This document shows, in pieces, positions 5,436-49,319 of a stretch of DNA of 64,000 nucleotides. The translations under genes and the position numbers were made by a program. Origin of the DNA: Gammaproteobacteria bacterium (GTDB taxonomy: Bacteria; Pseudomonadota; Gammaproteobacteria; Ga0077536). The stretch's first letter is position 1. Every line of letters begins with the position of its first letter. The DNA lies in the NCBI GenBank assembly GCA_021773835.1, contig JAJFJQ010000062.1, positions 207,322 through 271,321 on the forward strand, given 5' to 3'. A model generated the notes under the pieces. The model did not search any database, was not told the DNA's origin, and worked only from the letters and a program-made list of their open reading frames with translations.

Positions 5436-5436
5436 G

Positions 5437-6213
5437 ATGGAAAACTCGACACCTACAAGCCAGCAACCTTTATTTTATCGCGACGTGGTGCCGCTAAGTC
5501 GTGAGCGCCACGCCGATTGGTTTGTCGACATGGCGCAAGGCTATGGGTTTACCGCGGACACGAACTCGATATATGTCGCGGGAACCGAATTTCCGATGAC
5601 CTCGCGGGAATATCCGATAGTCTTCGCGATGGATGCTGCAAAAAATTTGGTCCCGGTAGCGCTGCTGGGCCTGCGACAAAACCAAAACCTCATGATTGCC
5701 GAAGATGGCAGTTGGCTCGGCGGTTATGTCCCGGCCTACATACGGCGTTACCCATTTATCTTGGCTAACGCGGATGAGCAAGCTAATAAATTCGCGGTGT
5801 GCATCGATGAGTCTTATTCTGGTTTCAATACCGCCGGTGAAGGCGATCGACTCATTAACGAGGACGGCCAACATGGCGAGATCCTATCGAATTCGGTAAA
5901 GTTTCTAGAGGAGTTCCACAAGCATAGCGAAGTCACGACGCAGTTTTGCCAGGCTATCGCCGAAGCGGGCTTAGTCGAATCGATGCAGGCCAATTTTTCA
6001 ATGAAATCCGGCAGTAGTTTTTCACTGGCTGGTCTCCATTGTGTACCTCGCAATAAGATCAAGGCATTGTCTGCAGAGCAGCTTAAACTGTTCGTCGACC
6101 GCGATTACCTAGATCTTCTTTATCTGCACATCTATTCGTTATCGAATATGGACAAACTTATCGCACGATACGACGAAGTTGATAAAGCATCGACCGCGGC
6201 AGGTGAACGTTAG
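5437..6213 (+). CDS. SapC-family protein (domain associated with S-layer/type I secretion loci)
   Basis: An in-frame ATG at 5437 lies 1 nt after the upstream stop (the tracked ORF begins earlier at 5398 and would overlap). The motif YVPAYIRRYPFIL and the ~255 aa length fit the SapC domain family as I recall it. No search was run. Confidence 0.55.
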   Translation: MENSTPTSQQPLFYRDVVPLSRERHADWFVDMAQGYGFTADTNSIYVAGTEFPMTSREYPIVFAMDAAKNLVPVALLGLRQNQNLMIAEDGSWLGGYVPAYIRRYPFILANADEQANKFAVCIDESYSGFNTAGEGDRLINEDGQHGEILSNSVKFLEEFHKHSEVTTQFCQAIAEAGLVESMQANFSMKSGSSFSLAGLHCVPRNKIKALSAEQLKLFVDRDYLDLLYLHIYSLSNMDKLIARYDEVDKASTAAGER

Positions 6214-16608: not shown

Positions 16609-18657
16609 ATGCCCAACTACACCACTCAAGATATTCGCAACGTCGCATTGGTCGGCGGAGCCAATACGGGAAAAACGATGCTGGTGGACGCGTTGTTCGC
16701 GGCCGCCGGCGCCATCAAAATTAAGGGGCAGATCGAGCGGGGCACGACTATCTGCGACTACACGCCGCAGGAAAAAAGCGTGCGTCATTCCCTTGATTGC
16801 TCGGTCGCCAGCCTCGATTACGATGGAAAGCATCTGAACCTCATCGATACCCCGGGGGCCGCAGACTTTATCGGCCGATCCATTTCCGTCTTACCCGCGG
16901 CCGAGACCGTCGCGGTGGTGATCGACGCACGCGCTGGGCCCGATTTGGTGGCCAAGCGAATGATGGATTGGGCACGCGACCGTGGATTGGATCGCATTGT
17001 TATCGTAAACCATATTGATGCTGCGCCCGATGGACTTGAGGCGTGCCTGAATCAAATTCAAGAGAGTTTCGGGCCGGAGTGTCTCCCAATCAATCTACCT
17101 GCGCAGCAGGCGACTGAGGTGGTCGACTGCTTTTTTAAACCAAATGGCGCCGCTACTGATTTTTCGAGTGTCGCCGACGCCCATTCCCGGCTCGTCGATC
17201 AGGTCGTAGAGGTCGATGACGAACTAATGGAACTCTACCTCGAGCAGGGGGAGGAATTGGGCCCGGAGCAATTGCATGACCCATTTGAGAAAGCACTGCG
17301 GGAGAATCATCTAGTACCAGTGTGTTTTACGTCGGCCGAAAGCGACGCCGGTATCAATCAGTTGCTGGAAATAATCTGCCGACTGATGCCCAATCCAAAC
17401 GAAGGTAATCCACCAGATTTTTTTCGTGGCGACGGTGACATCGGGGACCCCATCCATTTCACGCCGGATCCGAACGCCCATATCCTTGCTCACACCTTTA
17501 AGGTAAATATCGATCCCTTTGTAGGCCGGTTGAGTATTTTCCGAATTCACCAAGGCACGGTATCCAAGGACAAACAACTTGTCGTCGGTGATGGGCGCCG
17601 CGCGTTTCGTGTTAGCCATTTATTCAAGCTTACCGGCGGTGAGACCAGCGAAATAGATGCGGGGATCCCGGGCGATATCTGCGCCATCGCCAAGGTAGAC
17701 GACATCGAAATTGATTCGGTGTTGCATGACTCGCATGACGAAGACGAAATCCATTTGCGCTCAATTAACCTGCCGGTCCCAATGCAGAGCGTCGCGGTTA
17801 AGGCGAAAAGCCGCGGCCAAGAGCAGAAACTATCCGACGCCCTGCACAAGATCCAAGCCGAGGACCCGAGCATTAACATCGAGCACGATCATGCGCAAAA
17901 TCAAACCATCGTCCACGCGCTCGGCGAGCTGCATTTGCGCGTGGTTCTCGAAGCACTAAAGGAACGTTTCAATGTTGACATTGAGACCAGCCCGCCGCGC
18001 ATTGCTTATCGTGAAACGATCACAACGCCGGCCGAAGGACATTATCGCCACAAGAAGCAAACCGGCGGTGCCGGCCAGTTTGGCGAGGTTTCCCTGCGCG
18101 TTAAACCGATGCGCCGCGGGACTGGTTTTCGTTTCAATAACGAGGTGGTCGGGGGCGCTATTCCGCGCCAATTCATACCGGCAGTTGAGAAAGGCGTGCG
18201 TCAAGCGATGAGCCAAGGTGTTATCGCTGGATATCCGATAGAGGATGTGGAAGTGACGGTCTATGACGGTAAACATCACCCGGTGGATTCGAAAGAGGTC
18301 GCCTTCGTCGCCGCCGGCAAGCGCGCATTCATGGCGGCGATTGAACAAGCGGAGCCTGCTATCCTTGAACCCATTATCGACTTGCATATCAGTTTGCCGT
18401 CGGCGAATGTCGGCGATATCACCGGCAATTTAGCGTCGCGTCGCGGTCGCATCAACGAGACGACCGCCCTGGAGGACGGTCGCAGTAGCGTCAGTGCACA
18501 GCTACCATTGGCAGAGCTCGAAGGTTACCAATCCCATTTACACGCTATGACCTCAGGCGCCGGCAGCTTTACCGTCGATTTCAATCGTTATGATGTGGTC
18601 CCTGCGCGGATGCAGAAAGAACTAGCGGCTGAGTTTAAAGAGGCGCTCAAGCATTGA
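16609..18657 (+). CDS. Elongation factor G-family GTPase paralog with divergent catalytic motifs
   Basis: 682 aa. The P-loop GGANTGKT is intact. Switch II reads DTPGAADF and G4 reads NHID. EF-G domain II to V-like features continue to the C-terminus. Confidence 0.85.
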   Translation: MPNYTTQDIRNVALVGGANTGKTMLVDALFAAAGAIKIKGQIERGTTICDYTPQEKSVRHSLDCSVASLDYDGKHLNLIDTPGAADFIGRSISVLPAAETVAVVIDARAGPDLVAKRMMDWARDRGLDRIVIVNHIDAAPDGLEACLNQIQESFGPECLPINLPAQQATEVVDCFFKPNGAATDFSSVADAHSRLVDQVVEVDDELMELYLEQGEELGPEQLHDPFEKALRENHLVPVCFTSAESDAGINQLLEIICRLMPNPNEGNPPDFFRGDGDIGDPIHFTPDPNAHILAHTFKVNIDPFVGRLSIFRIHQGTVSKDKQLVVGDGRRAFRVSHLFKLTGGETSEIDAGIPGDICAIAKVDDIEIDSVLHDSHDEDEIHLRSINLPVPMQSVAVKAKSRGQEQKLSDALHKIQAEDPSINIEHDHAQNQTIVHALGELHLRVVLEALKERFNVDIETSPPRIAYRETITTPAEGHYRHKKQTGGAGQFGEVSLRVKPMRRGTGFRFNNEVVGGAIPRQFIPAVEKGVRQAMSQGVIAGYPIEDVEVTVYDGKHHPVDSKEVAFVAAGKRAFMAAIEQAEPAILEPIIDLHISLPSANVGDITGNLASRRGRINETTALEDGRSSVSAQLPLAELEGYQSHLHAMTSGAGSFTVDFNRYDVVPARMQKELAAEFKEALKH

Positions 18658-18687: not shown

Positions 18688-19224
18688 TCAACCAGATCGG
18701 GCCGCCGTACCCTTTACGATTTCCATCGTGTTGCCGGCACTACTGGTCTCTGCGGCGGTTTCGATCGCGCCCGCGTGTAGTACCGGTGCCGCGTCGATAT
18801 CCTCAGCGCCCATCAGCGACGCCAGCCGTTGTAAGGCAGCCAACACGAACGATTGCTCCCAAGCTTCGAGCGCGCTGAAGCGACGGTCGAGCAAGTCCTG
18901 CAAGGTTTTCGGTGCATCGCGAATGAGTTTTCTGCCGGCGGCCGTTGGCGAAACAATAACGCGACGTTTGTCTTCTTCGCCGCGATGTTTGTCGACCAAC
19001 CCTTTGCGCTCGAGGCCGTTAACGATCGAGGTTGTTGTGGCTTGGGTCAAATTGATTTCCCTCGCGACTTCACTGACCGTAAGCGAGGTGGCGTCACTGA
19101 TCGCCTGCATCACCAGCAGTTGGGGTGTCGTCAAACCCGTGTCTTTCGCCAATCGTTTCGCACCCATATCGGTCGCCTTATGGATCTGGCGCAGCGCGAT
19201 GAGTAACTCCTGATAATTGTCCAT
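18688..19224 (-). CDS. MarR-family transcriptional regulator
   Basis: Winged-helix region LTQATTTSIVNGLERKGLVDKHRGEEDKRRVIV. Start chosen at MDNYQELL. Confidence 0.8.
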   Translation of the reverse strand: MDNYQELLIALRQIHKATDMGAKRLAKDTGLTTPQLLVMQAISDATSLTVSEVAREINLTQATTTSIVNGLERKGLVDKHRGEEDKRRVIVSPTAAGRKLIRDAPKTLQDLLDRRFSALEAWEQSFVLAALQRLASLMGAEDIDAAPVLHAGAIETAAETSSAGNTMEIVKGTAARSG

Positions 19225-19395
19225 TGTTCTCGCCCGGTGACGACAGCCCAGCATACTACCGGATACTAGGGATCAAATGCAGTGCTGATTTTATTTTGAA
19301 AATCTATGTATATTCATTCGGAAAATTATCGATTTAGTTCATCCTAATTGGCTTAAAAGCGATATTTCGCATCTTTCCGTGCAGTTTTCATTTCG

Positions 19396-19439
19396 AATCC
19401 GAATGTAATATACTTTCGGATTGAAAGTATTATTTCAAT
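19396..19439. promoter_or_regulatory. Two adjacent palindromes (AATCCGAA-N11-TTCGGATT at 19396-19422, and TTGAAA-N6-TTTCAA at 19421-19438) in the MarR / asnB-like divergent intergenic region. Candidate MarR operator.
   Basis: Both are perfect inverted repeats read directly from the sequence. Confidence 0.45.
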
Positions 19440-19500
19440 GGATCCGATCCGGCTCGAATCGATCGGCATCCGCAATTCAACGACTAAAAGGAATTCAACT

Positions 19501-21924
19501 GTGTGTGGAATCGCCGCCGTTTGGGGTGAAGGTGCCCCAAATCTCGCCAATCGTATCGCCGAGCGCATGATGCACCGAGGCCCGGACGGGCATGGTCTGC
19601 AGCAGTCGTCGCAATGCAGGCTGACTCTGGCGCATCGTCGCCTTGCGATCATTGATCCAGTGGGCGGAAAACAGCCACTTGCTGCCCCGGAAAACAGCGC
19701 GATGCTGGTCGCCAATGGCATGATTTACAACGATATCGCGCTGCGGCAGTCGCTCAACGGCGATGTCTTCGTTACGTCCTCGGACTCGGAGTCCATCCTA
19801 CGTCACTGCGTGCGGCGGGGAACCGCTGGTGTCTCCGATCTCGATGGGATGTTTGCATTCGTTATGGAACACGACGGCAGGCTAATCGCCGCACGCGACC
19901 CGGTTGGGATCAAACCGCTTTATGTCGGTCGCCGCGGCAACACATTCTGTTTCGCGTCCGAAATCAAGCCGCTCCTGCCCGAGGTCGACGAGATACACGA
20001 GTTTCCTCCAGGCCACGTATTCGATTCCAAGGTCGGGCTCCGGCGCTACTACGCGTTACCTGAGGCGTCCGACGACCTGGGTAAGTCAGATGCGGCGCTG
20101 GCGGCTATTCGACACACTTTGACCCGTGCGGTAGAAAAGCGTCTTCGCTCGGATGTGCCGCTTGGCGTGTTTCTCTCCGGCGGCCTCGATTCGAGCCTAA
20201 TTGCCGCCATCGCAAGTCAGCTTCGACCGGGACTGAAAACCTTTGCCGTCGGTCTTGACGGTAGCCCTGATCTCGTAGCAGCCCGGCGCGTGGCCGCACA
20301 CCTTGGGACTGATCATTATGAGTCGATATTGTCGGCCGAAGCGGTCATGCGTGATCTACCGCGCATCCTCTACCATCTAGAATCATTCGACCGTGATCTC
20401 GTGCGCAGCGCGGTGCCGTGCTATTACGTCTCGAAGCTCGCCTCCGAACACGTCAAGGTCGTCCTTACTGGCGAGGGTGCGGATGAAATATTCGCGGGCT
20501 ACACCTACCATAAATCATACGCCGACCCGGACGCGCTCCAGGCGGAGTTGCGCCGCTCCGTGCTGAGTATGCATGACATCAACCTGCAGCGGGTGGATCG
20601 CATGACCATGGCGCACGGCTTGGAGGCGCGGGTCCCGTTTCTCGATCGTGAAATGTTGGCCCTCGCATTCCGTATACCCGCTTCACTTAAGTTACCGCCC
20701 GAGACGCAGATCGAAAAATGGATCCTGCGCAAGGCGTTTGAGGATTTGTTGCCGCACGAGATCGTCTGGCGCAACAAACAACAGTTTGATCAGGGCAGCG
20801 GTATAGCGGATCTGCTGGAATCGGTTACGGCCGGTGCGCCGGCACAAATGGCAGACGCATTGCCAAAACAGGGGCGCGACGCCGAGGAAGCGCTCTATCG
20901 CCGACAGTTGGCCGAACAGCTCGACGAACCCGCAAAGCTCCTCGAACTCGTTACCCACTGGGAAAGTGATCATCGCGTCGAGCAGGTGCCAGCGGATCGA
21001 TTTTCCGTCACCGCGATCAACAAGACGGTGAAAGACGATAAGGCTATTGGCGACGTCGCCCTGGACGATTTCAGCGGCCTCTATGATCTACCCTCGCCGC
21101 GGCCGTATTTTGGACGCATGGCCAAGCTCGACTACCGCATACCCGAGGCAGCCGCCAACATCTATCGATGGTGTATTGATGAACTGCGCCGAATCAACGA
21201 CACCGCGGAACTAACGGTACTCGATCTTTGCGCTGGCTATGGTGTCAACGGTGCGCTGATGCAGTTAGATAAGTCGTTGGACGAAATTTACGCGCATTTC
21301 TCCGAGGCCCCTGCTACCACACGATCCGACCAGCTATTCGATCGACTTACGCTGGCGCCGCAGCGTAGCGATGCGGCGTTGAACATTGTCGGGATAGACG
21401 TCGCCGCTAACGCGCTCGCTTGCGCGCGTGATACCGGGTTCATTACCGAAGGGCACGCCGTCAATCTAGAAACGCAAGCGCTGCCCGAGGAGCTTGGGGA
21501 GTCCATCGCACGTTGTTCGCTCATTACGATCACCGGTGGATTCAGCTTTATCGGGAGCGCGACGTTCGACAAGATCCTATCTGCCGTACCGAACTCGTCG
21601 CCAAAACCGTGGATCGTAGGCTTTCCGTTACTGCATACGGATCTCGAACCGATAGTGGATGTGTTACACAACCACGGCTATGTTATCCAGCCGGGACTAC
21701 AATACCGTTATCTACAGCGGCGGTTTGCAAGCGATCGCGAACGCGACAACGAGCGGACCGCGCTCGCCGCCTCCGATTTAAACACAATTGCCGAAGACTA
21801 TTTTGAATCACGTCTACTGCTTGCCCAGCCTCCGTGTGGTCCACAAATACCTGTCGAAGTACTGGATCTTGATGCCATCGGAGACGGTGAACCGACGGTG
21901 GATTCCCGACGCTGGGCATCCTGA
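19501..21924 (+). CDS. Asparagine synthase (glutamine-hydrolysing)-like amidotransferase fused to a C-terminal Rossmann/methyltransferase-like domain
   Basis: GTG at 19501, preceded by AAAAGGA, gives the N-terminal MCGIAAVWGEG (Ntn Cys). The PP-loop SGGLDSS is present. The C-terminal ~270 aa contain VLDLCAGYGVNG and NIVGIDVAANALACA. Confidence 0.8.
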   Translation: MCGIAAVWGEGAPNLANRIAERMMHRGPDGHGLQQSSQCRLTLAHRRLAIIDPVGGKQPLAAPENSAMLVANGMIYNDIALRQSLNGDVFVTSSDSESILRHCVRRGTAGVSDLDGMFAFVMEHDGRLIAARDPVGIKPLYVGRRGNTFCFASEIKPLLPEVDEIHEFPPGHVFDSKVGLRRYYALPEASDDLGKSDAALAAIRHTLTRAVEKRLRSDVPLGVFLSGGLDSSLIAAIASQLRPGLKTFAVGLDGSPDLVAARRVAAHLGTDHYESILSAEAVMRDLPRILYHLESFDRDLVRSAVPCYYVSKLASEHVKVVLTGEGADEIFAGYTYHKSYADPDALQAELRRSVLSMHDINLQRVDRMTMAHGLEARVPFLDREMLALAFRIPASLKLPPETQIEKWILRKAFEDLLPHEIVWRNKQQFDQGSGIADLLESVTAGAPAQMADALPKQGRDAEEALYRRQLAEQLDEPAKLLELVTHWESDHRVEQVPADRFSVTAINKTVKDDKAIGDVALDDFSGLYDLPSPRPYFGRMAKLDYRIPEAAANIYRWCIDELRRINDTAELTVLDLCAGYGVNGALMQLDKSLDEIYAHFSEAPATTRSDQLFDRLTLAPQRSDAALNIVGIDVAANALACARDTGFITEGHAVNLETQALPEELGESIARCSLITITGGFSFIGSATFDKILSAVPNSSPKPWIVGFPLLHTDLEPIVDVLHNHGYVIQPGLQYRYLQRRFASDRERDNERTALAASDLNTIAEDYFESRLLLAQPPCGPQIPVEVLDLDAIGDGEPTVDSRRWAS

Positions 21925-22358: not shown

Positions 22359-22703
22359 ATGCCGAGTCGAGTAGTTGTAGCGAAAGAACTGGCCGAAATC
22401 TTTAAAATTTTGGCGCATCCGGACAGGATCCGATTGATCGAGGAAATGAAGGATGGAGAAAAGGACGTCAACACGCTTGCCGAATTACTCGATCTGCCCG
22501 GTCCGCGGGTATCGCAGCATTTGGCCTTGATGCGCGCGCACCGCATCATTGAAGAAGAACGTGACGGACGCCATCGCCGATATCACCTCGTGCAGCCGGA
22601 AATCGCGCAATGGATCATTGACGGAATGGCATTTCTGGAAAATCGTTCTCATGTGATACCGAAATCGAAGATCAATGCAGCGCGGAGATTATGGGCTTCT
22701 TAG
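22359..22703 (+). CDS. ArsR/SmtB-family transcriptional regulator
   Basis: HTH region ELAEIFKILAHPDRIRLIEEM...VSQHLALMRAHRII. The tracked ORF begins at 22311. Confidence 0.75.
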   Translation: MPSRVVVAKELAEIFKILAHPDRIRLIEEMKDGEKDVNTLAELLDLPGPRVSQHLALMRAHRIIEEERDGRHRRYHLVQPEIAQWIIDGMAFLENRSHVIPKSKINAARRLWAS

Positions 22704-22762: not shown

Positions 22763-23416
22763 ATGCCGAATTTTGCAACCGGGGTAATCCGCTTCCAACG
22801 GGACGTTTTCCCTGCAAGGCGGGAAATGTTTGAAAAATTGAGCCAGGGCCAATCGCCGGAGGCTTTGTTTATTACCTGCTCGGATTCACGGATTGAACCC
22901 GCGATGATCACGCAGACCGATCCGGGCGAGCTGTTTATCTGCCGTAATGCCGGCAATATCATACCGCCGCACACAACGGCGACCGGCGCAATGACGGCAT
23001 CGATCGAATTCGCGGCCGCTGTATTACAGGTACCGCACATCGTGATCTGCGGGCACACGGAATGCGGCGCCATGAAAGGTGCGATGGATCCGGGATCGCT
23101 GGACGGGTTACCGCATGTTAAAGAATGGCTCGGATTCTCCAAGGCCGCAGTCGACATCGTAAACGACCTTGGTGCCGAATCGGACGAGCCCGGTCGCATG
23201 CGCATGCTGTTGGAGCAGAACGTAGTACTACAGTTGCAACATTTGAAAACTCATCCGACGGTAGCATTGCGCCTTGCAAAACACGATGTACAGCTCCATG
23301 GCTGGGTCTATGACATTGCGTCCGGGGACGTGCACGCCTACGACGAACCGTCGGAAAAATTTGTGCCGGTCGCCGAACGTTATGCCGAGGCGATCAAATT
23401 GAGCCAGAGCGTTTAA
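22763..23416 (+). CDS. Beta-class carbonic anhydrase
   Basis: CSDSRIEP and HTECGAM zinc-ligand motifs. Confidence 0.9.
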   Translation: MPNFATGVIRFQRDVFPARREMFEKLSQGQSPEALFITCSDSRIEPAMITQTDPGELFICRNAGNIIPPHTTATGAMTASIEFAAAVLQVPHIVICGHTECGAMKGAMDPGSLDGLPHVKEWLGFSKAAVDIVNDLGAESDEPGRMRMLLEQNVVLQLQHLKTHPTVALRLAKHDVQLHGWVYDIASGDVHAYDEPSEKFVPVAERYAEAIKLSQSV

Positions 23417-23450: not shown

Positions 23451-25097
23451 ATGAAATACTTCGATACTTCGAACCTTCGCGGAGACATCTACGGCGGTGT
23501 AACGGCGGGTGTTGTCGCGCTTCCGCTTGCCCTGGCGTTTGGTGAAGCGTCTGGGGCAGGGCCGATTGCCGGATTATGGGGGGCGATCATCGTTGGGTTT
23601 TTTGCGTCTCTAATTGGCGGAACACAATCGCAGGTCTCCGGTCCGACCGGACCCATGATTGTCGTATTCGCCGGTGTATTTGGAACCTTACACGGCGATC
23701 TCTCGTTAGTCTTTGCGGCGGTGGTCCTCGCTGGACTCTTGCAAATAGTGTTTGGGATCCTGAAACTCGGCCAGTACATCAGGCTCGTCCCGTATCCCGT
23801 GATATCGGGCTTCATGAGCGGTATCGGCTGCATAATCATCGCCTTGCAACTATCTCGTCTATTTGGCCATGAACCAGAGGCCCGCGGGACGATACCGGCG
23901 TTGACCGCCGTTCCTGATGCGGTGATGGATCCAAATTTCGTGGCATTGACGATCGCAATAGTATGCCTGGTCCTAGTTTTTCGCTGGCCTCAGAGCTGGG
24001 GAAAGATCATTCCGGGACCGCTGGCAGCCTTGATCGTCGGTACGGTTCTAAGCGTTTTCTTACCCGGGGCACCGGTTTTAGGCGATATACCGACAGGGTT
24101 CCCGGACTTGGTCATCCCAAGTTTTACGCACGAAACGGTTCTCATTGTGCTCGAAGCAGCCTTCATTTTAGCGCTACTTGGCGCGGTCGACAGTTTGTTG
24201 ACGTCGCTCGTCGCCGATAACATGACACGCACGCGCCACGATTCGAATCGCGAACTAATTGGGCAGGGTGTCGGCAATACCGTTGCCGGCTTGTTCGGCG
24301 CCATTCCGGGCGCGGGCGCCACAATGCGCACGGTAGTTAACATTCGCACGGGCGGCAAAACTCGGATATCCGGCATGGTGCACGCGTTGCTATTGTTCGC
24401 GGTCGTGATCAGCCTCGCGCCGTTAGCCGAGCGGATCCCGCACGCGGTATTAGCGGGTATCCTGATCAAGGTCGGTTACGACATTATTGACTTCTCTTAT
24501 CTCAGATACGCGCACAAAGGTCCGCGCTGGGACCTGGCCTTAATGGCGTTAGTGCTCGGCCTCACGGTATTTGTGGATCTCATTACGGCGGTCGCAACTG
24601 GGGTGGTGCTCGCGGCACTCGCATTCGTGAAAATGCTGGCGGATGAACAGATGTCGCAATTCGACCAGCCAACGGTAACAACACCCGAAGAGCAGGAAGT
24701 GCTCGCGAAAGCAAAGAACCAAATTATGATGTTCGACTTCTCAGGTCCGCTGAGTTTCGGTGCGGCCGCGGATGTCGGTCACCAGGTTCGAGAACGTACG
24801 GGGCAAACTGCGCGGGCAATGATCCTTGACTTCTCGCGGGTAACCTTCATTGATGTATCGGCAGCGCGCGCCGTCGAGACGATTGGCTGCGACGCTCGTG
24901 CGCAACACACGCGCGTGTATTGCTCGGGGATGAGTGATTCAGTGCGGGCTGATCTTGCCGGATTGAACGCCGACCACTGTATCCCGAGCGACACCTACTA
25001 TGATGAACGCATCGATGCCCTGCGTGCCGCATTAACGTTTATCGAAAACGGCTCGGCGCACGGTCAGGACAAGGACGAACTGGTAGCGGCTGGATAG
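23451..25097 (+). CDS. SulP-family anion (sulfate/bicarbonate) transporter with C-terminal STAS domain
   Basis: 548 aa polytopic membrane protein plus a STAS-like C-terminus. Classic pairing with a carbonic anhydrase. Confidence 0.9.
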   Translation: MKYFDTSNLRGDIYGGVTAGVVALPLALAFGEASGAGPIAGLWGAIIVGFFASLIGGTQSQVSGPTGPMIVVFAGVFGTLHGDLSLVFAAVVLAGLLQIVFGILKLGQYIRLVPYPVISGFMSGIGCIIIALQLSRLFGHEPEARGTIPALTAVPDAVMDPNFVALTIAIVCLVLVFRWPQSWGKIIPGPLAALIVGTVLSVFLPGAPVLGDIPTGFPDLVIPSFTHETVLIVLEAAFILALLGAVDSLLTSLVADNMTRTRHDSNRELIGQGVGNTVAGLFGAIPGAGATMRTVVNIRTGGKTRISGMVHALLLFAVVISLAPLAERIPHAVLAGILIKVGYDIIDFSYLRYAHKGPRWDLALMALVLGLTVFVDLITAVATGVVLAALAFVKMLADEQMSQFDQPTVTTPEEQEVLAKAKNQIMMFDFSGPLSFGAAADVGHQVRERTGQTARAMILDFSRVTFIDVSAARAVETIGCDARAQHTRVYCSGMSDSVRADLAGLNADHCIPSDTYYDERIDALRAALTFIENGSAHGQDKDELVAAG

Positions 25098-25365: not shown

Positions 25366-28300
25366 CTAACCATTGTGCATCGTTACCAGTAGATCGTGTG
25401 CATCGACCGTCTCGCCACGTCGAACATTCACCTGCTTGACGGTCGCGTCCAGATCGGCCCGGATCTGAGTTTCCATTTTCATCGCTTCGATGGATAGCAG
25501 CGGATCACCCTTTTTGATTTTCTGGCCCGAGGCCACTGCGACCGAAGCGATCATGCCGGGCATCGGTGCGCCGATGTGGGCCGGATTGCCGGCCTCCGCC
25601 TTAGGTCTTTCTTCCTTCACTTCCGCCCCGGACTTTGCGACACGCACGAGTCTCGGTTGTCCGTTCAGCTCGAAAAAGAGTTTTACCTCTCCGTCCTCCG
25701 GCGCCTCTGTTCGCCCCTGCAGGCCAATTAATAACCCCTTACCAGACTCGAGTTCGACCGAGATTTCTTCACCTTCGGTCATCCCGTAGAAAAATGCCGT
25801 CGTCGGCAACCTCGATACGTCGCCGTAATGACTACGGTGGGCGGCATAATCGCGAAATACCTTTGGGTACATCAAACTCGAAGCGAGATCAGTATCGCTG
25901 ACCGTGCGGCCGATCGTTTTCTCTACGTCATCGCGCAGTGCTTCTAGGTCGACCGGCGGTATGTTTGCGCCTGGCCGTCCGACGAGCGGTTGTTCACCGG
26001 CTAATACCTTCTGTTGTAGTTGCTGCGGGAATCCGTCGGGCGGGAAACCCAGCTCTCCTTTAAAAAGCGAAATTACCGATTCGGGGAAGGCAATCTCGCG
26101 TTCGGGATCAAGCACTGCGGCAGGGTCGAGATCGTTGATAACCATAAACAGTGCCATGTCGCCGACAACCTTGGATGTCGGTGTGACTTTGATAATGTCA
26201 CCGAACATTTGATTGACCTCGGCATAAGCACGCGCGACCTCGGGCCAACGTGACGCGAGTCCGATTGCGCGGGCCTGTTCGCGCAAATTCGTATACTGGC
26301 CGCCGGGCATTTCGTGACGGTAAACATCCGACGTGCCGGATCGCATATCAGCTTCGAACGGCGCGTAATATCGCCGCACACCCTCCCAATAATGTGAAGC
26401 GGCCTGCATGGACTCGAGCGGGACTTTTGGATCCCGCTCGTGACCAGCAAGTGCAACGGCTATTGCACCAAGATTTGGCTGAGAAGTGAGACCCGACATA
26501 CTGTCGAATGCCCCGTCAACGGCGTCGCAGCCCGCCGTCACAGCCGCCAACACGGCGGCACCGCCGATGCCGCTCGTATCATGCGTATGAAAGTGTACAG
26601 GGAGGCCGATTTCTTGCTTTAAGGCCGTGATTAATTCATAGGCGGCCCGAGGACGGCATAGACCGGCCATGTCCTTGATGCCGATGATGTGCGCGCCAGC
26701 CTGCTCGAGCGCTTTGGCCATGCCGATGTAGTAGTTGAGGTTGTATTTCGAGCGGCTAGTGTCGAATAAATCTCCGGTGTAGCAAATGGCGCCTTCGCAA
26801 AGGCTGCCCGATTCGCAAACCGCGTCGATTGCGACGCGCATGTTTTCGACACCATTGAGCGCGTCGAACACTCGAAATATATCGATACCGCTGGCAGCGG
26901 CTTGCTGCACGAAATACTTCACCACGTTATCGGGATAGTTTGTGTAGCCGACCGCGTTAGATGCGCGCAGCAACATTTGCAGTAGGATATTCGGCACCGC
27001 CTCACGTAACCGCGTGAGGCGCTCCCATGGATCTTCTTTAAGAAAGCGCATCGCAACATCAAATGTCGCTCCGCCCCAGCATTCAAGCGAGAATAGCTGC
27101 GGTAGCATCCGCGCATAGTATGGTGCGATTTCGACCATATCGTGTGTTCGCATGCGCGTCGCGAATAGCGATTGATGTGCGTCGCGCATCGTCGTATCAG
27201 TAAGTAACACCTGTGGTTGATCGAGCATCCATTTGCTGAAGCGTTCGGCGCCGAGCGTTCTAAATTCATCGCGCGAGCCGCGTCTCATTTCCGAATTTCG
27301 ATCATAAGACGGCCGCACAACTGATAGCGCCTGTGTCTGCGGCGGTATACGCCCTTCCATTTCCGGATTACCGTTGACAATGACTTCCCCGAGGAAGCGT
27401 AATAAGCGTGTCGCACGATCGCGACGCTTTATTATTTTGAATAATTCCGGCGTTGAGTCGATAAATCGCGTCGTATTTTCACCCGACTGGAATACTGGAT
27501 GATTGATGATGTTTTCCAGAAACTGCAGATTGCTCGACAAACCACGGATCCGGAACTCGCGCAGGGACCGATCCATACGCTTAATCGCCTCAGCGCTAGT
27601 TGGCGCCCAGGTTGTGACCTTCACGAGCAGCGAATCGTAGTATGGCGTGATGACCGCACCTGAATAGGCGGTACCGCCGTCGAGGCGAACGCCGAAACCG
27701 GATGCACTGCGATAGGCGGTTAGGCGACCATAATCCGGAATGAAGTTATTTTCCGGGTCCTCAGTCGTGACACGACATTGCAACGCATGGCCTTTTAGCT
27801 TTATGTCATTTTGGAGCGGGACTGCGCCGTCGGGCGAACCAATGCGCTCACCCTCAGTGATGCGGATCTGTGCTTTGACGATATCAATTCCGGTAACTTC
27901 TTCGGTGACCGTGTGCTCAACCTGGATCCGTGGATTAACCTCAATAAAATAATAGTTACCGCTGTCGATATCCATCAAGAATTCGACGGTTCCGGCATGC
28001 GTGTAGCTTACTGCTCTGGCCAGATTCAGCGCCGCCTCACACAAATCTGCTCGCGTTCGCTCATCTAGGTACGGCGCCGGGGCACGCTCTACGACTTTCT
28101 GATTTCGCCGTTGCACAGAGCAATCACGCTCATACAAGTGGACGAGGGACCCGTGCATGTCACCGAGGATTTGTACTTCGACGTGCCGTGCGCGGCGAAC
28201 GAGTTTCTCCAAATAAACCTCGTCGTTGCCGAACGCCGATAGCGCCTCGCGTCGCGCACTATCCATATTCGCATCGAGTTCTGACTCCGATTCGATGATG

Positions 28301-28812
28301 CGCATACCGCGACCGCCGCCGCCCCAACTTGCCTTAAGCATTAATGGATAACCAACTTGGGCGGCGAGTCGTTTTACCTCATCGCTGTCGTGCGGCAGCG
28401 GGCCTGTCGCTGGCATAATTGGTACACCTGCGTGCTCAGCGACGTCGCGAGCTGCGATCTTATTACCAAGCGTGCGCATTACCTGTGGCCGCGGTCCAAT
28501 GAACAAGATGCCCGCCGCGGCGCAAGCGTCGGCAAATTCCGGATTCTCTGACAGAAACCCGTAACCCGGATGTATGGCATCCGCACCGGCTTGCCGAGCG
28601 ATCCCGAGGATCCCGTCGATGTCGAGGTAGGCCGCTACCGGCTGCTTGCCGTCGCCGACAAGGTAACTTTCATCGGCCTTGAACCGATGCAATGCAAAGC
28701 GGTCCTCATTCGCATAAATGGCGATCGTCTGAATTCCGAGTTCCGTGGCCGCGCGCATAACGCGGATCGCGATCTCGGAACGATTAGCAACCAGGAGTCT
28801 ACGTATGCGCAT
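25366..28812 (-). CDS. pyc: Pyruvate carboxylase (single-chain)
   Basis: 1148 aa with a biotin carboxylase N-terminus, carboxyltransferase centre and C-terminal biotinyl domain containing AMKME. Confidence 0.93.
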   Translation of the reverse strand: MRIRRLLVANRSEIAIRVMRAATELGIQTIAIYANEDRFALHRFKADESYLVGDGKQPVAAYLDIDGILGIARQAGADAIHPGYGFLSENPEFADACAAAGILFIGPRPQVMRTLGNKIAARDVAEHAGVPIMPATGPLPHDSDEVKRLAAQVGYPLMLKASWGGGGRGMRIIESESELDANMDSARREALSAFGNDEVYLEKLVRRARHVEVQILGDMHGSLVHLYERDCSVQRRNQKVVERAPAPYLDERTRADLCEAALNLARAVSYTHAGTVEFLMDIDSGNYYFIEVNPRIQVEHTVTEEVTGIDIVKAQIRITEGERIGSPDGAVPLQNDIKLKGHALQCRVTTEDPENNFIPDYGRLTAYRSASGFGVRLDGGTAYSGAVITPYYDSLLVKVTTWAPTSAEAIKRMDRSLREFRIRGLSSNLQFLENIINHPVFQSGENTTRFIDSTPELFKIIKRRDRATRLLRFLGEVIVNGNPEMEGRIPPQTQALSVVRPSYDRNSEMRRGSRDEFRTLGAERFSKWMLDQPQVLLTDTTMRDAHQSLFATRMRTHDMVEIAPYYARMLPQLFSLECWGGATFDVAMRFLKEDPWERLTRLREAVPNILLQMLLRASNAVGYTNYPDNVVKYFVQQAAASGIDIFRVFDALNGVENMRVAIDAVCESGSLCEGAICYTGDLFDTSRSKYNLNYYIGMAKALEQAGAHIIGIKDMAGLCRPRAAYELITALKQEIGLPVHFHTHDTSGIGGAAVLAAVTAGCDAVDGAFDSMSGLTSQPNLGAIAVALAGHERDPKVPLESMQAASHYWEGVRRYYAPFEADMRSGTSDVYRHEMPGGQYTNLREQARAIGLASRWPEVARAYAEVNQMFGDIIKVTPTSKVVGDMALFMVINDLDPAAVLDPEREIAFPESVISLFKGELGFPPDGFPQQLQQKVLAGEQPLVGRPGANIPPVDLEALRDDVEKTIGRTVSDTDLASSLMYPKVFRDYAAHRSHYGDVSRLPTTAFFYGMTEGEEISVELESGKGLLIGLQGRTEAPEDGEVKLFFELNGQPRLVRVAKSGAEVKEERPKAEAGNPAHIGAPMPGMIASVAVASGQKIKKGDPLLSIEAMKMETQIRADLDATVKQVNVRRGETVDAHDLLVTMHNG

Positions 28813-32195: not shown

Positions 32196-32744
32196 ATGAG
32201 CAGGCGCAGCAGAGGCAATTCCGGGGAAACGACCGAGTCGAAGTCCGCTACGACAGTCGAGTTCTCGCTCGATCAGAGCATGGGGGCGCTCGTCCGCTTT
32301 ACTCACCGCGCTTTCCTCGAGGACCTGCAGTCACACCTCGCTACGCATGACGTAAACGCGGGCATGTGGTTCTTTCTGCGGACGCTTTGGGAAGAAGACG
32401 GCATCACCCAGCGGGAGCTGAGCCGGCGGATAGGTATCTCGGAACCAACTGCGCTGCATCAGTTGCGCAAGATGGAAAGCGCGAAGCTGCTCGAGCGCCG
32501 ACGATCGAAAACGGATCGTCGTAAATTTGACGTCGTGTTGACCGCCAAGGGCCGCAGGCTGAAACAGAAACTACTGCCGTACGCGGTCGATCTCAATGCG
32601 GACGCACTGATGGGGATTCCGAAAAGCGATGTCCAGATCGCGCGGCGCGTGCTTGCCGATATTCGCGATAACCTCAGCAAACGGCGCCAGGAACGCGATG
32701 TCGCCATCCGTAAAAAGGCTGGCCCGGGGGCTAGCAAGGACTGA
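32196..32744 (+). CDS. MarR-family transcriptional regulator
   Basis: RELSRRIGISEPTALHQLRKMESAKLLERRRSKTDRRKFDVVLTAKG. Confidence 0.75.
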   Translation: MSRRSRGNSGETTESKSATTVEFSLDQSMGALVRFTHRAFLEDLQSHLATHDVNAGMWFFLRTLWEEDGITQRELSRRIGISEPTALHQLRKMESAKLLERRRSKTDRRKFDVVLTAKGRRLKQKLLPYAVDLNADALMGIPKSDVQIARRVLADIRDNLSKRRQERDVAIRKKAGPGASKD

Positions 32745-33109: not shown

Positions 33110-35086
33110 TTATCCGGCTTTGCGATCTCCGGCCCGCACTTCGCGTAATTGGTTGCGCCGCGTCTGGGTAGCCGCATCGTCCAGCGTGCCGTCGGCGTCA
33201 CAAACGACACCGTAAATCATGTCCGCGGCATGGGCAGAAACACGCTGCCGATGGATGTCGTGCACGACTTCGTGTGGGTCGCGCAGTAACGGATCGCCAT
33301 AGCCGCCGCCCCCCTGCCAATGGGTGTAGTACACGTCGCCCGGATCAAGGTCTGTTTCAGCATGTGAAGGCAGCTCATCATGTTGCCCGACAATATCCTG
33401 CAGATTGCGCGGGATCCGGCCCGCGGCGAACTGCTGGTGCACATCGGTGGCGCGCACCAGTACGTCGTAGCTGTTGTTTGCGGGATATCCGCCGCACAAA
33501 CCGTGGGCCAGCGGCAGCGCTTTCCCTGGCGAGGAAACGACCAGGTGCACGCGACCGGCGGGCGAGTCATGTGGAATAAAGCAGCTCGAAGCACCAAGTC
33601 CGCCACGAAAGCGCCCAGGACCACCAGAATCCACCTCCTCACGCCGCCAGAGGTAAAGCATCGGAAAACTGAATTCGTTGATTTCTACATCCGCGATGCG
33701 GCCCATCGGAATGCAACTCTGGCCTCCGGTATCAACTCCATCGCGATCTGTGCGGGCGCCGAGGCCGCCGGACATGGAGTCGCACAGCATGGTTACGAAT
33801 GGTCCGCCGCGCTGATCCACACCTGCCAGTACGGTCAGATCCCAAGTCCCTTCGCAAACCGACATTGCGCCACGGCAATGCTGCGGATGCGTGACCAGCA
33901 TACTGGCGATAGTTTCCGACACTGCATTTTGCGTCGCCCAGGCCGAAGCAACGGAGGCTTTGCCGACGCCCGCCGGGAAAGTGCAATTGTTGATCGTACC
34001 CTGCTCGCTGATGATATTCAGGCAACGGTATATGCCGCCGGGGACCCAGGGAATGTCGTTACACAGCATGGTCAATACGATCGGCATAATGCCGCCACGC
34101 AAACCGGCGAAGGTGCAGTTAATAAAGCCCTCGACCTGCTTGTCAGTACCGGTGAAGTCGAACGTAAGGCTGTCGCCCTGTTTACTCATCTGAAGCACGA
34201 TCTTGTAGATACCGTCATCCCCGGCGCGCGCGCCGTCCTGGTGGGCCACCGCCCCCCAGGTGCCGTTCGGCAGGCTGCTCAGTTTTGCGCGGAGACGCTT
34301 TTCAGCATCCGCCATCATGCGTTTCATGACCGCCTTGACCGTGTCGGGGCCATATTTCCCGATTAACTGGTCAAGACGCTCCTGTGCAACGTTATTGGCG
34401 CCAAGCTTGGCGCGCAGATCGAGCGCGATAAGCTTCGGGACACGGGAACGACGCAGGTACATGTCCTCGATGTCCGGACGTAGCTCTCCGCCCTCTATGA
34501 TCTTGACGGGCGGTACCGGCGTCGATTCCCAAAATACGTCGCGCCCGGATACCGACCAGCTGCCGGGCGATACGCCGCCAAGGTCAACCTGATGGCACAC
34601 CGCGCCGGTCCACGCGAACAGCTTACCGTCGTGGAACAGCGGTGCGAACAAGCTCACGTCGTTTTGATGCAGTCCGCCACCAACCCAGGGGTCGTTGCAC
34701 AAAAACATATCGCCGGGCTTGATCCCGGGGCGTTCGCAGCGGTGCTCCAGAGTCCACTTAATCGCCATGTCGAGCGATGCAGCGAGTTGCGTGTTGTAAA
34801 CCCCGACCAGCACGAGATCGCCGGTTTCGTCGGCAATCGCCGCGCTGAAGTCATTGCAGTCGGTAACCACAACGGAGCCGGACATGCGCTTCAGGGCGTC
34901 ACCCATATCTTCGGTGATGGCCGCGAGGCGGTGCCGGATGACTTCGAACGTCAACGGGTCGACCGCTTCAATGGCGCGTTCGTCAATTGTATGGATCGCC
35001 AGGTTCGACGCAGCGGCAAGCAGTTCCGCCGGACTGCGTTGGACGAAATTAAAGCGTTCGGAGCCGGAAACGTGGGTGATCGTCAT
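33110..35086 (-). CDS. Hydantoinase B / oxoprolinase-family subunit (acetone-carboxylase alpha-like)
   Basis: 658 aa with DPLTFEVIRHRLAAITEDMGDALKRMSGSVVVTDCNDFSAAI. A 4 nt overlap with the upstream hydantoinase A gene. Confidence 0.88.
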   Translation of the reverse strand: MTITHVSGSERFNFVQRSPAELLAAASNLAIHTIDERAIEAVDPLTFEVIRHRLAAITEDMGDALKRMSGSVVVTDCNDFSAAIADETGDLVLVGVYNTQLAASLDMAIKWTLEHRCERPGIKPGDMFLCNDPWVGGGLHQNDVSLFAPLFHDGKLFAWTGAVCHQVDLGGVSPGSWSVSGRDVFWESTPVPPVKIIEGGELRPDIEDMYLRRSRVPKLIALDLRAKLGANNVAQERLDQLIGKYGPDTVKAVMKRMMADAEKRLRAKLSSLPNGTWGAVAHQDGARAGDDGIYKIVLQMSKQGDSLTFDFTGTDKQVEGFINCTFAGLRGGIMPIVLTMLCNDIPWVPGGIYRCLNIISEQGTINNCTFPAGVGKASVASAWATQNAVSETIASMLVTHPQHCRGAMSVCEGTWDLTVLAGVDQRGGPFVTMLCDSMSGGLGARTDRDGVDTGGQSCIPMGRIADVEINEFSFPMLYLWRREEVDSGGPGRFRGGLGASSCFIPHDSPAGRVHLVVSSPGKALPLAHGLCGGYPANNSYDVLVRATDVHQQFAAGRIPRNLQDIVGQHDELPSHAETDLDPGDVYYTHWQGGGGYGDPLLRDPHEVVHDIHRQRVSAHAADMIYGVVCDADGTLDDAATQTRRNQLREVRAGDRKAG

Positions 35087-37212
35087 GCCAGTTTCTCCTT
35101 CTCGCTTCCGTTAACGGTCGCGACGTAAGTAATTCTGAGATTACCGAGTTCGTCGACCCGTGCATCGCAACCGAACGGTATGGCAACGGTGGTCGTCGGC
35201 GCCTCAACCACGGCTGGTCCTTTCAGGGTATCGCCCGGTCCGAGATCGAGATAATCGTAAATCGCAGTGCGTTCAAATCCACGCCGTATATCCAGGAATA
35301 CGTCGCGACTACCCCGAGCTTGCGCGCTTGCAGGCTTGCGTTCTGCGTGCGGCAATTCCGGCCGTATCGGCAGGCGGCCGCGGACCCGCATGCGATATGT
35401 GATCAACTGCATGCCCGCATCCCGATAGCCGGCATCCTTACCATACAGCTCCGCATACAGTGCTTCGAACGATTGTCCGATGGAGTCGACCTTCTCGGCG
35501 TCCAGTTCCCCGGCTGGAACCGGGGTCGTTACCTCGGCCAGCTGCATGGTGTAGCGAACGTCGACCTCGCGCTCGTAGGTCACGTCCGTAAAACTTAATC
35601 CCTGCTCGTCAAGGTAAGCGCTAAGTTCCCGCTCCAGGTCGCTGAAAATGTCCTGTAGCTGTTGCGGATCCGGTGGAAAATTTTCAGGTTGCGAGCGTTC
35701 GCGGGTCAGGACGATGTCTGAGCTGGCAAGACCGTACGCCGAGAACACAGCCGCAGTTGACCCGAGCGGAACCAGTACTTCGATGACGCCAAGATCGGCC
35801 GCATAGCTTGCGCAATGCATGGGGCCTGCGCCACCGAACGCATAGAGAACGAAATCGCGCGGATCGCGGCCGCTGTTTACAACCACCTTGCGTACCAAGT
35901 CAGCAGCCTGTGCATTCTGGATTGCGTAGATGGCTGCAGCCGCATCGCTAACGCTCATGCCGAGCGGGTCAGCGATATGTTTTTTGATCGATGCTTTCGC
36001 ACTCGCGACGGATAGTGGTTTTTTGCCGCCCAGGAAGTAATCCGGATTAATGATGCCGAGCACCAGGTCCGCGTCGGTCAATGTGGGGCGCTCACCGCCC
36101 TCGTCATAGCAAGCCGGACCAGGGTGCGCGCCGGCGCTATCCGGACCGACGCGCAGGTTGCCACCCTGGTCAAGCCACGCGATCGCGCCACCGCCAGCTC
36201 CAATGGTATGCACGTCGACCATGGAACTCGAAATCAGATACTGATTGATGACCACTGTATTGGTCGAGACAGGCTTGCCGTCCACCAACAAGCCAACCAG
36301 AAATGTTGTGCCGCCGATATCGGTCGAGATTACGTTGTCATGGTTAAGGATTCGGCCCAGATTCGCGCAACCGACGAGGCCGCCGGTAAGCACCGAACCA
36401 AGCGTTGTGACGGCATGACGAGGTGCCTCGCGAGCGCGAACGCAGCCGCCAGAACCTTGCATCACAAGTAGCGAGCCGTCAAAGCCACGCCCACGCAACT
36501 CGTCTTCCAGCGGGTACAAGTAGCCACGGAGGATAGGCGCGACCTGGGTATTAACTATCGTGGTGGCGCTGCGCGGAAATTCACGAATGCGCGGACTGAC
36601 ATCTGAAGATAGTGCGACGTAGAGGTCGGGCGCTATTTCACCAATAATGTCGCGGACTCGATGTTCGTGCGCCGGATTGCTGAACGACCAGAGAAAAGAC
36701 ACCGCTAGCGCTTCGACGCCTTTATCGATCAGCCGCCGGGTCGCCTGGCGAACGCCGCCCTCATCAAGACACACAATTTCCGCCCCTTTGTAGTCGATCC
36801 GCTCGTTGATTTCCTCGATCAATTGACGCGGCACCAGGGCTGGCGGTTTGCTGGTGTTGGCCATGTTCTGGATTTCTTCTGCATCCAGGCCAGCATAGCG
36901 TCCCTCAACATTCATAATCGAAATAGAATCGGCGTGCCCCTGAGTGGTCATGAATCCGACTTTGGACACATTGCCCGTGACCAGTGCGTTAAGCGTGGAA
37001 GTTGTACCGTGCACGATATAGTCCGTATTGCCGAGCAACTCTGGCGTGCTGATCCCGACTACTGCGGCCAGTTCGTCGACGACATTCAGGAACCCGAGCG
37101 AAAAATCGTGCGGTGTAGACGGTGATTTTGCTGCGAACAGGATGCCCGCTTCATCGGCCAGGAAACCATCCGTAAAGGTACCCCCGGTATCGATACCCAT
37201 AACATATGCCAT
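35083..37212 (-). CDS. Hydantoinase A / oxoprolinase-family subunit (acetone-carboxylase beta-like)
   Basis: 709 aa with the N-terminus MAYVMGIDTGGTFTDGF and ASKHA-fold ATP-binding motifs. Confidence 0.88.
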   Translation of the reverse strand: MAYVMGIDTGGTFTDGFLADEAGILFAAKSPSTPHDFSLGFLNVVDELAAVVGISTPELLGNTDYIVHGTTSTLNALVTGNVSKVGFMTTQGHADSISIMNVEGRYAGLDAEEIQNMANTSKPPALVPRQLIEEINERIDYKGAEIVCLDEGGVRQATRRLIDKGVEALAVSFLWSFSNPAHEHRVRDIIGEIAPDLYVALSSDVSPRIREFPRSATTIVNTQVAPILRGYLYPLEDELRGRGFDGSLLVMQGSGGCVRAREAPRHAVTTLGSVLTGGLVGCANLGRILNHDNVISTDIGGTTFLVGLLVDGKPVSTNTVVINQYLISSSMVDVHTIGAGGGAIAWLDQGGNLRVGPDSAGAHPGPACYDEGGERPTLTDADLVLGIINPDYFLGGKKPLSVASAKASIKKHIADPLGMSVSDAAAAIYAIQNAQAADLVRKVVVNSGRDPRDFVLYAFGGAGPMHCASYAADLGVIEVLVPLGSTAAVFSAYGLASSDIVLTRERSQPENFPPDPQQLQDIFSDLERELSAYLDEQGLSFTDVTYEREVDVRYTMQLAEVTTPVPAGELDAEKVDSIGQSFEALYAELYGKDAGYRDAGMQLITYRMRVRGRLPIRPELPHAERKPASAQARGSRDVFLDIRRGFERTAIYDYLDLGPGDTLKGPAVVEAPTTTVAIPFGCDARVDELGNLRITYVATVNGSEKEKLA

Positions 37213-43445: not shown

Positions 43446-44306
43446 ACGGACATCTTAAAGTCAATAGGTTGATGCCGCCGGCATCAAGATAGTGACTCTA
43501 GAATTCGTAGATGGGAGGAGTACCCGCCGGCGCGCCGGGCCCACGAGCATTGGCCTAGGGCCAATGCAACGTGTTTGTGTCTACGACACGCTGCAGTCGC
43601 CGACGTTGAGCGAAGGTCCGCGTCACTACACAAGCGAAGCGCAGTAGTGACGCGGACGAAATCGGTGCCTTGGGCCTTGCCCGCTGGGCCGATTCCTGAA
43701 CTGTGCACGAATGCCCCGCGAATTACGGTGGGAACCCCGCACGTCGGTGACTTGATTTATCCGGATGCCAGCTTCGCGCCCGTCTAGACTCATCCGGCGT
43801 GAACGATTTTATCCGTGGCCACTACGGCAAAGTGGCAACCAAGGCATCGTCGGACCGTGTAACCGATGCATCGGCGCAAGCCGCGGTCCATCTTCAAGCA
43901 AATGACAAACCAATCGGAGCGTCCATCCTCGCCGGCAGTTGCCAGCGATTCAATCATCGAGCGTCCGTTTAGCGAATGTTGCTTAGTGCTCATTTTTTTT
44001 AATGCAGTTAGCCGCTGCAATCTTAAAAGGAGGTGTTTAACCATTGTCGAAACTCACCCGGAAACGGGATCGTTGGATTGCGCGAGAACTTCTTCAACAG
44101 AGGAAAGCTCGCGTTGCCTGTAACCAGGCGCTTTTAGGTTGACTGGGACTGGTGCCCCATGACTGCTCCGCTGTAGCGGTCTTGCCAGCTTCGGCTGTCA
44201 GGAAAGTCGGAAACACTTACCGAAAATCGGAAGCACTGTGAGAAGCCTGAACTACCAACTGAAAATGCTGTGTCGGCATTCCCGCGAAGGGAGTTATGCG
44301 ACGCAG

Positions 44307-45101: not shown

Positions 45102-45227
45102 CGATATCGTTCGTGAAGCGGACACACGCAGCCTGAAAAAACTACGCACTTCGTTGAATTGAATTACTGCAGCGGATCCGGTGCGTCCCTCGTAAGCTCC
45201 CGTTAAGCACACTTAACCAACCTGCGA

Positions 45228-46544: not shown

Positions 46545-46619
46545 TGGTGGGCGATACTGGGATCGAACCAGTGACCCCTGCCGTGTGAAGGCAGTGCTCT
46601 CCCGCTGAGCTAATCGCCC
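46545..46619 (-). tRNA. tRNA-Val (anticodon CAC)
   Basis: The reverse complement GGGCGATTAGCTCAGCGGGAGAGCACTGCCTTCACACGGCAGGGGTCACTGGTTCGATCCCAGTATCGCCCACCA folds as a cloverleaf, with CCA encoded. Confidence 0.85.
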
Positions 46620-49114: not shown

Positions 49115-49319
49115 TTCTTTATTCCCGTCGTATCGGATACTTACCTTATCCGTCATCCTTCAATCGCCGCGGCGCCCATTTTGCGTGCGGAGGGCCTTAT
49201 ACTCACAGCCACAAGGCAGCGTGATATTTTAATCTTAAAACAAATCTATTTTAATGTTAAAGTAATTTCCACGAGGATTAAGACCGGAGCGCCGCGGTCC
49301 GTTGGTGAGGAGGAAACAT

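Follow-up and report, generated by a model that had tools for sequence, protein, structure and literature searches.

AsnB enzymes are the textbook model for ammonia channelling, and the human asparagine synthetase (ASNS) is a drug target. Escherichia coli AsnB (1CT9) and human ASNS (6GQ3) share a two-domain architecture, an N-terminal cysteine, the residues Arg49, Asn74, Gly75 and Asp98 (E. coli numbering) and the PP-loop motif SGGLDSS. The AsnB fold is also found in β-lactam synthetase, carbapenam synthetase and TsnB9, which act on substrates other than aspartate. Here we analyze a 64,000-nucleotide stretch of DNA (“the window”, to whose numbering all coordinates refer unless a locus is named; contig JAJFJQ010000062.1, positions 207,322 to 271,321, of assembly GCA_021773835.1) from a gammaproteobacterium of the lineage Ga0077536. 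At 19,501–21,924 on the plus strand it encodes a protein with all of these features of E. coli AsnB and human ASNS, in which the AsnB part is joined through a linker to a methyltransferase-like domain. Judged from its relatives and their gene order, this fusion unites in one gene what in Alphaproteobacteria is a module of two, asnB followed by a methyltransferase gene. Because of this relationship the two activities are most likely successive, and we propose, at a probability of roughly 55%, a bifunctional AsnB-methyltransferase whose halves act one after the other on one small molecule under the control of a MarR-family regulator.

The AsnB part comprises residues 1–490, the N-terminal two thirds of the fusion. 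An N-terminal nucleophile (Ntn, class II) glutaminase domain (amino acids (aa) 2–190; 19,504–20,070, plus strand) was recognized from Pfam GATase_7/GATase_6 (aa 28–159), from the alignment to 1CT9 and from column counts. It is followed by an asparagine synthetase (PP-loop ATP pyrophosphatase) domain (aa 191–490; 20,071–20,970, plus strand; Pfam Asn_synthase, E 4e-80), which ends in LVxHW and contains the PP-loop SGGLDSS (aa 226–232; 20,176–20,196, plus strand), invariant in alignment A4. The NCBIfam model for asparagine synthase B, NF006949, was passed marginally (503.9 bits against a cut-off of 499) and TIGR01536 clearly (398.7 against 267.1). The glutaminase residues Cys2, Arg47, Asn72, Gly73 and Asp95 are kept, as are the equivalents of Glu348, Asp351, Arg387 and Lys449 in the synthetase site (E325, D328, R364 and K426). 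By sequence, the nearest solved structure is E. coli AsnB (1CT9; E 2.2e-81, 36% identity), followed by human ASNS (8e-65). An AlphaFold model of the full-length protein (mean predicted local distance difference test score (pLDDT) 89.4, predicted template modelling score (pTM) 0.87) likewise found 1CT9 as its best fold match in the PDB (Foldseek, target TM-score 0.87); in the same comparison no solved chain extended past the AsnB part (query TM-score ≤0.54). On these sequence criteria the AsnB part is AsnB proper, with the complete glutaminase and synthetase that the initial annotation had described. It departs from E. coli AsnB in having Met74 in place of Glu76, the one altered position in the glutamine-site network (Arg49, Asn74, Gly75, Glu76, Asp98; E. 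coli numbering), in having Asp for His80, and in its divergent MarR gene; the last ~50 residues of the E. coli enzyme are replaced by the LVxHW tail, the linker and a methyltransferase domain of 270 aa.

The linker (aa 491–522; 20,971–21,066, plus strand) is poorly conserved, with a mean conservation of 0.29 against 0.57–0.73 in the domains, and is predicted to be disordered (pLDDT <50 over aa 499–521). As it is the only disordered part of the full-length model, the pTM of 0.87 suggests a defined docking of the predicted domains. Beyond it, the class I S-adenosylmethionine (SAM)-dependent methyltransferase-like domain (aa 523–790; 21,067–21,870, plus strand) was identified from its motifs and predicted fold. 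Motif I, VLDLCAGYG (aa 573–581), departs from the canonical GxGxG; together with the strand-2 acid Asp633, Glu657 and TGGFSF (aa 678–683) it is invariant across 29 fusions, and motif I and Asp633 hold throughout the family as well. An AlphaFold model (pTM 0.80) has a Rossmann-like seven-stranded α/β fold with a pLDDT of ~90 over the domain. Generic class I methyltransferases (TehB-like 3CGG, cap guanine-N7 methyltransferases, TmtA, UbiE/COQ5-like) resemble it in the alternating β/α arrangement of a Rossmann-like core, in a motif I rich in glycine and in the acidic residue that follows strand 2. Identity to them is only 11–16%, and the domain has features of its own: a lid at its N-terminus is conserved (DFSxLY..P.PRPYF...LDY.IP), and it carries a QRRF motif. 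The fold and motifs thus back the ~270-aa Rossmann-type extension foreseen in the initial annotation, whose motifs (SGGLDSS in the AsnB part, VLDLCAGYGVNG and IVGIDVAANALACA) were all found in the translated fusion.

An exhaustive HMMER search for the C-terminal family retrieved 914 cluster representatives at E ≤1e-3 and 354 at E ≤1e-30, nearly all of them standalone proteins of ~290 aa; a word-based search with the C-terminal domain alone returned 11 standalone proteins and missed every fusion. The family shares the lid ..IY..PDPR.YF..L..LDY.IP, a motif I of the form DLGCSYGVN, VG.D with the strand-2 acid, NLE, STGC.GY, PW..FVLRMF and QRRF. Among 26 typical standalone relatives, 14 weakly match Methyltransf_25 and 13 Methyltransf_12 (best E 5.3e-5, below gathering-level confidence). 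Assignment of the C-terminal domain to the class I SAM-dependent methyltransferases is supported by its fold and motifs, as a family that has no Pfam or NCBIfam model of its own. Its ~900 cluster representatives, unnamed in both collections, occur in Proteobacteria, cultured Streptomyces and eukaryote-like plankton sequences. Two relatives (P0023/P0039) show further architectures, a fusion to a carnitine/choline O-acyltransferase-like domain (Mycobacteriales metagenome-assembled genome (MAG), MEN3359317.1) and a tandem duplicate in eukaryote-like plankton sequences. These hint at small quaternary-amine or hydroxy-acid substrates, which we take as a lead only. The tandem eukaryote-like relative also raised DsyG/DSYE, the S-methyltransferases of dimethylsulfoniopropionate synthesis, as candidates; DsyG has PF08241 and belongs to a different lineage. 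A standalone relative near TusA and TauE raised the H2S/methanethiol S-methyltransferase MddH, which is a UbiE-like protein of 207 aa with the canonical GxGxG. Both were rejected.

A search with the full-length protein was performed to find homologous fusions. It returned 33 fusion clusters (at 90% identity) from uncultured Gammaproteobacteria, ~800 aa long and 58–100% identical, so that the fusion is not the one-off it had seemed. Next in the same search came unfused AsnBs of ~495 aa at 55–61% identity. In the two closest unfused loci examined, a gene of 281–285 aa begins 66 bp downstream of asnB, and its product is 31–32% identical to the fusion's C-terminal domain (E 7e-47 and 5e-45). Species-representative genomes were then scanned with an alignment of the methyltransferase subfamily (A3), which returned 31 loci; a single C-terminal sequence as query gave no match in these genomes. 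The gene is fused to asnB in 4 of the 31 loci (Gammaproteobacteria MAGs, including UBA981), stands directly downstream of asnB on the same strand in 13 (mostly Alphaproteobacteria MAGs, with one gammaproteobacterium), is divergent from asnB in one (Aestuariivirga), and occurs alone in the remaining 13 (11 cultured Streptomyces species and 2 Alphaproteobacteria). Conversely, among 80 metagenome loci found with an AsnB alignment, a methyltransferase gene followed only two AsnBs, both at least 56% identical to the fusion protein, and no such partner was present in ~60 AsnB loci at 32–52% identity, in all of which the downstream sequence extended for 900 bp or more.

The split operons of Alphaproteobacteria (L014/L030, L015, L041 from Kiloniellales and L042 from Rhodospirillales) have the gene order of the fusion. 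Their AsnBs belong to the same subclade (54–60% identical, with NGMIYND and LVxHW) and their methyltransferases to the same subfamily (31–39% identical, with the C[AC]GYG and TGG motifs). They differ from the fusion in being two separate genes, usually without a MarR neighbour, and are likewise uncharacterised. Pairwise identities of the two parts were strongly correlated (r = 0.95 across 21 pairs), a value reached in 0 of 2000 permutations. Beyond asnB and MarR no conserved neighbour was found around the proteobacterial loci, and the AsnB-methyltransferase module is therefore self-contained. A biosynthetic cluster around the Streptomyces homologues was also considered and rejected, as no conserved neighbour whatever was found there. 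No publication on a fusion or operon of this kind turned up in a literature search, and a fold search of the PDB gave no solved structure of one, in line with the view of the initial annotation that no equivalent fusion has been characterised, and nothing relevant was found in the literature on the biosynthesis of free N-methylasparagine.

To define what sets these AsnBs apart, 24 methyltransferase-partnered AsnBs were compared with 58 unpartnered AsnBs of 40–53% identity. At the position of E. coli Glu76 (Met74 in the fusion; codon 19,720–19,722, plus strand), column counts gave Met in 22 of the 24 partnered and Glu in 53 of the 58 unpartnered proteins. Glu76 is part of a conserved hydrogen-bond network at the glutaminase site (PMC6748925) and adjoins the tunnel-gating residue of human ASNS, in a region described as involved in the gating of ammonia transfer (PMC11615228). 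The partnered AsnBs are further distinguished by Asp at the position of His80, by Arg in place of the Met that precedes the PP-loop and by the C-terminal LVxHW. Fused and unfused partnered AsnBs differ at just two discriminating positions, A44 and H337, and the unfused ones end directly before the linker (...LVAHWDERPAA). In the split AsnBs the very C-terminus is conserved, which suggests contact with the methyltransferase partner. Partnered AsnBs form a natural subclade without the conserved Glu76; in all the loci examined, the methyltransferase is either part of the same protein or encoded next to it. They offer a concrete, testable case for the repurposing or coupling of an AsnB scaffold. 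Two further loci, L020 (959–3,545) and L061 (3,501–5,428), carry AsnBs of a different subclade, in which Glu76 is retained and the motif RKWMVADVE is present, next to genes of the same methyltransferase family. The two genes are divergent in L020 and convergent in L061, and this may be a second, independent association.

The regulator is encoded divergently from the fusion at 18,688–19,224 on the minus strand (Pfam MarR and MarR_2; 178 aa in the public copy of the locus, L009), and an alternative start at 19,254 would give 188 aa. A MarR protein of 74–75% identity, higher than that of the fusion itself, stands beside every fused orthologue examined, while the other neighbours differ; the regulator called dedicated in the initial annotation thus merits the word. 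Of the split loci, one (L048) carries an upstream MarR gene at 40% identity. A 12-nt inverted repeat (AATCCGAATGTA / TACTTTCGGATT; 19,396–19,422) lies in the intergenic region and is a candidate MarR operator because the surrounding block is conserved in six loci. The repeat overlaps a promoter-like site (19,385–19,414), a match that taken alone is no better than chance and is not the reason for this assignment. A search of Rfam revealed no riboswitch or other RNA near the fusion gene. With its winged-helix domain, its divergent arrangement and the palindromic site in the shared intergenic region, the locus resembles those of known MarR repressors, and by this analogy the regulator probably represses the fusion by binding the promoter-overlapping palindrome.

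The proposed function can be outlined as follows. Removal of the initiator methionine would expose Cys2 as the N-terminal nucleophile of the glutaminase. Ammonia derived from glutamine would pass to the PP-loop synthetase site, which would adenylate a carboxylate, most likely the β-carboxylate of aspartate. The methyltransferase half, held by the ~30-residue linker as a flexible tether, would then methylate the substrate or the product of the AsnB half. The overall conversion would be Asp + Gln + ATP + SAM to a methylated amide, for which a methylated asparagine derivative is the simplest guess. Fusion, or tight coupling in an operon, would hold the two activities together, and MarR would repress expression through the palindrome overlapping the promoter. 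Should the product prove to be a methylated amino-acid amide that is new, it could serve marine bacteria as an osmolyte or signal so far overlooked. The two-step modification enzyme suggested by the initial annotation is thus now backed by a conserved gene order, while we still infer that both halves are catalytically active and share a substrate.

Several observations weigh against this proposal. The synthetase-site residues are the same in the 24 partnered and 58 unpartnered AsnBs, and because of this match the AsnB part may simply make asparagine. In 11 Streptomyces species and 2 Alphaproteobacteria the subfamily occurs without AsnB, showing that the methyltransferase can work alone. Under vertical descent, neighbouring genes are expected to be inherited together, which does not prove that they share a substrate. 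Finally, the hidden Markov model scan of the C-terminal 328 aa of the fusion was empty in Pfam (to E=10) and in NCBIfam, and SAM binding by this domain is deduced from its motifs and modelled fold.

The main rival takes the AsnB part for an ordinary asparagine synthetase and has the methyltransferase act as a regulator or on its own. In its regulatory form the C-terminal domain would sense SAM or S-adenosylhomocysteine, or modify proteins, and so tune asparagine synthesis. The score of the AsnB part above an NCBIfam equivalog cut-off and its unchanged synthetase site fit this explanation, as does the location of the sole active-site change at the glutaminase site and tunnel entrance, the region described as involved in gating in human ASNS (PMC11615228). 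The best PDB sequence match of the methyltransferase family, a protein-lysine methyltransferase, points the same way, albeit weakly (E 0.0095–0.015). However, the invariant SAM motifs are of the catalytic type, the family is mostly standalone across its ~900 cluster representatives, and its AsnB-free occurrence in Streptomyces fits an enzyme better than a dedicated regulator of AsnB. We therefore consider a regulatory domain rather unlikely, though it is the explanation that deserves most attention beside the successive action of two enzymes.

A more specific version of the bifunctional enzyme is suggested by the replacement of Glu76 by Met and of His80 by Asp. Because these changes are largely confined to methyltransferase-partnered AsnBs, the pair might employ a methylated nitrogen donor or acceptor, or generate one, and no longer simply channel ammonia from glutamine. 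Methylamine might, for example, be delivered by a tunnel that is more hydrophobic and so yield N4-methylasparagine, or the product might be an N-methylated, asparagine-type compatible solute. We regard this as speculative and on balance improbable; if true, it would represent a new small-molecule pathway, encoded by one gene under MarR control, in marine Gammaproteobacteria that are uncultured and in Alphaproteobacteria.

Two unrelated enzymes of separate pathways might also have been joined by a chance fusion of neighbouring genes, as would fit a linker that is disordered and unconserved and the lack of a third conserved gene indicating a pathway. Yet the adjacency is maintained across two proteobacterial classes, and of the 18 genomes with a link to AsnB, 17 agree in order and strand; the partner is confined to one AsnB subclade with its own signature substitutions, and some split pairs overlap or stand <70 bp apart. 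This makes an accidental association very unlikely.

Slightly less credible still is a specialised AsnB-like amidotransferase of the β-lactam-synthetase or exopolysaccharide (EPS)-locus kind, the type favoured in the initial annotation, which would have a substrate other than aspartate for the methyltransferase to modify afterwards. The replacements of Glu76 by Met and His80 by Asp do mark the subclade as no textbook AsnB, and TTIR of E. coli reads DLVR in the fusion; DLVR is nevertheless common to unpartnered AsnBs of the same broad clade and is therefore not diagnostic. The AsnB part falls far below the cut-offs of the PEP-CTERM/EPS amidotransferase model TIGR03108 (257.8 against 816.9), the NAGGN amidotransferase model TIGR03104 (248.1 against 570.1) and the lasso/macrolactam cyclase families of NCBIfam. 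β-Lactam synthetase (E 2.4e-26) and CarA (E 1.7e-20) are much more distant from it than AsnB and ASNS, with target TM-scores of 0.61–0.78 for β-lactam synthetase, carbapenam synthetase and TsnB9, and the fusion retains the Cys of the glutaminase, with the scores of a genuine AsnB. Neighbours typical of a biosynthetic cluster are also lacking around the module.

The reading frame and its start were examined in addition. The longest open reading frame (ORF) over the gene begins with an ATG at 19,438 (19,438–21,924, 828 aa), 21 codons upstream of the GTG at 19,501 as the initial annotation had pointed out. The GTG opens a coding sequence of 807 aa that ends in TGA and reads M/V-C-G-I-A-A-V-W, placing Cys at position 2. 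It is preceded, 7 nt upstream, by AAGGAA (19,488–19,493, plus strand), read from the sequence as a Shine-Dalgarno site, which likewise precedes an ATG in the close gammaproteobacterial loci L004, L005, L010 and L016. The codon before this Cys is ATG in 19 orthologous or related loci, in most of which the in-frame extension upstream is short or contains no start codon; the extension is not conserved. The ATG at 19,438 has no ribosome-binding site and lies ~16 nt past the conserved operator/promoter-like block. A public copy of the protein (P0174; NCBI and Logan) is identical and 807 aa long, and an MCG... N-terminus was called by gene callers in 28 of the 33 fusions. Because of the ATG at the same codon in related loci, the unconserved extension, the public copy and the missing ribosome-binding site at the upstream ATG, comparison of the sequences leaves the GTG at 19,501 well supported as the true start.

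An artefact of the assembly, in which a frameshift or read-through had made one long ORF of two genes, was suggested by one long-read metagenome contig (L001, 2,318–4,694), in which the same gene is colinear with the fusion in five reading-frame pieces; this is already refuted by the intact ~800-aa orthologues, which form 33 independent clusters and come from a wide range of samples and assemblers, and by the identical protein from two independent sources. As the adjoining genes of L001 look intact, its pieces may reflect either sequencing indels or a pseudogene. The fusion is thus already in public databases under a plain name, with no characterisation found: where named, the fused proteins are recorded as ‘MAG: asparagine synthase (glutamine-hydrolyzing) [Gammaproteobacteria bacterium]’. 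With the label ‘asparagine synthase’ alone, genome-based metabolic models probably misread the fusion.

The surroundings of the locus were also inspected. Directly upstream of the MarR gene, an EF-G homologue of 682 aa (16,609–18,657, plus strand; NF009891, 965 bits) has no ribosomal-protein operon context and looks like a second EF-G copy. Downstream of the fusion, a small ArsR/HTH_20-type regulator (22,359–22,703), a β-carbonic anhydrase (22,763–23,416) and a BicA/SulP-type bicarbonate transporter (23,451–25,097), all on the plus strand, apparently form a separate unit, followed on the opposite strand by pyruvate carboxylase (25,366–28,812). A second MarR gene (32,196–32,744, plus strand) adjoins a hydantoinase/oxoprolinase A+B pair (33,110–37,212, minus strand) at a distance of ~11 kb. 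A hydantoinase A+B pair directly follows the fusion gene, in convergent orientation, in the orthologous UBA981 locus L010 (8,593–12,902), and its presence near the fusion may represent leftover synteny or a functional hint.

Farther away, an ORF of 1769 aa (126–5,435, plus strand) was without a Pfam match at E ≤1e-4; a gene of the SapC family (5,398–6,213, plus strand) comes directly after it. Two integrase genes (44,238–46,543, plus strand) beside a tRNA (46,548–46,619, minus strand) look like the edge of an integrated element. At 49,302–53,592 (plus strand), a molybdopterin oxidoreductase, a 4Fe-4S subunit and an NrfD-like membrane subunit make up a Psr/Phs-type respiratory reductase set.

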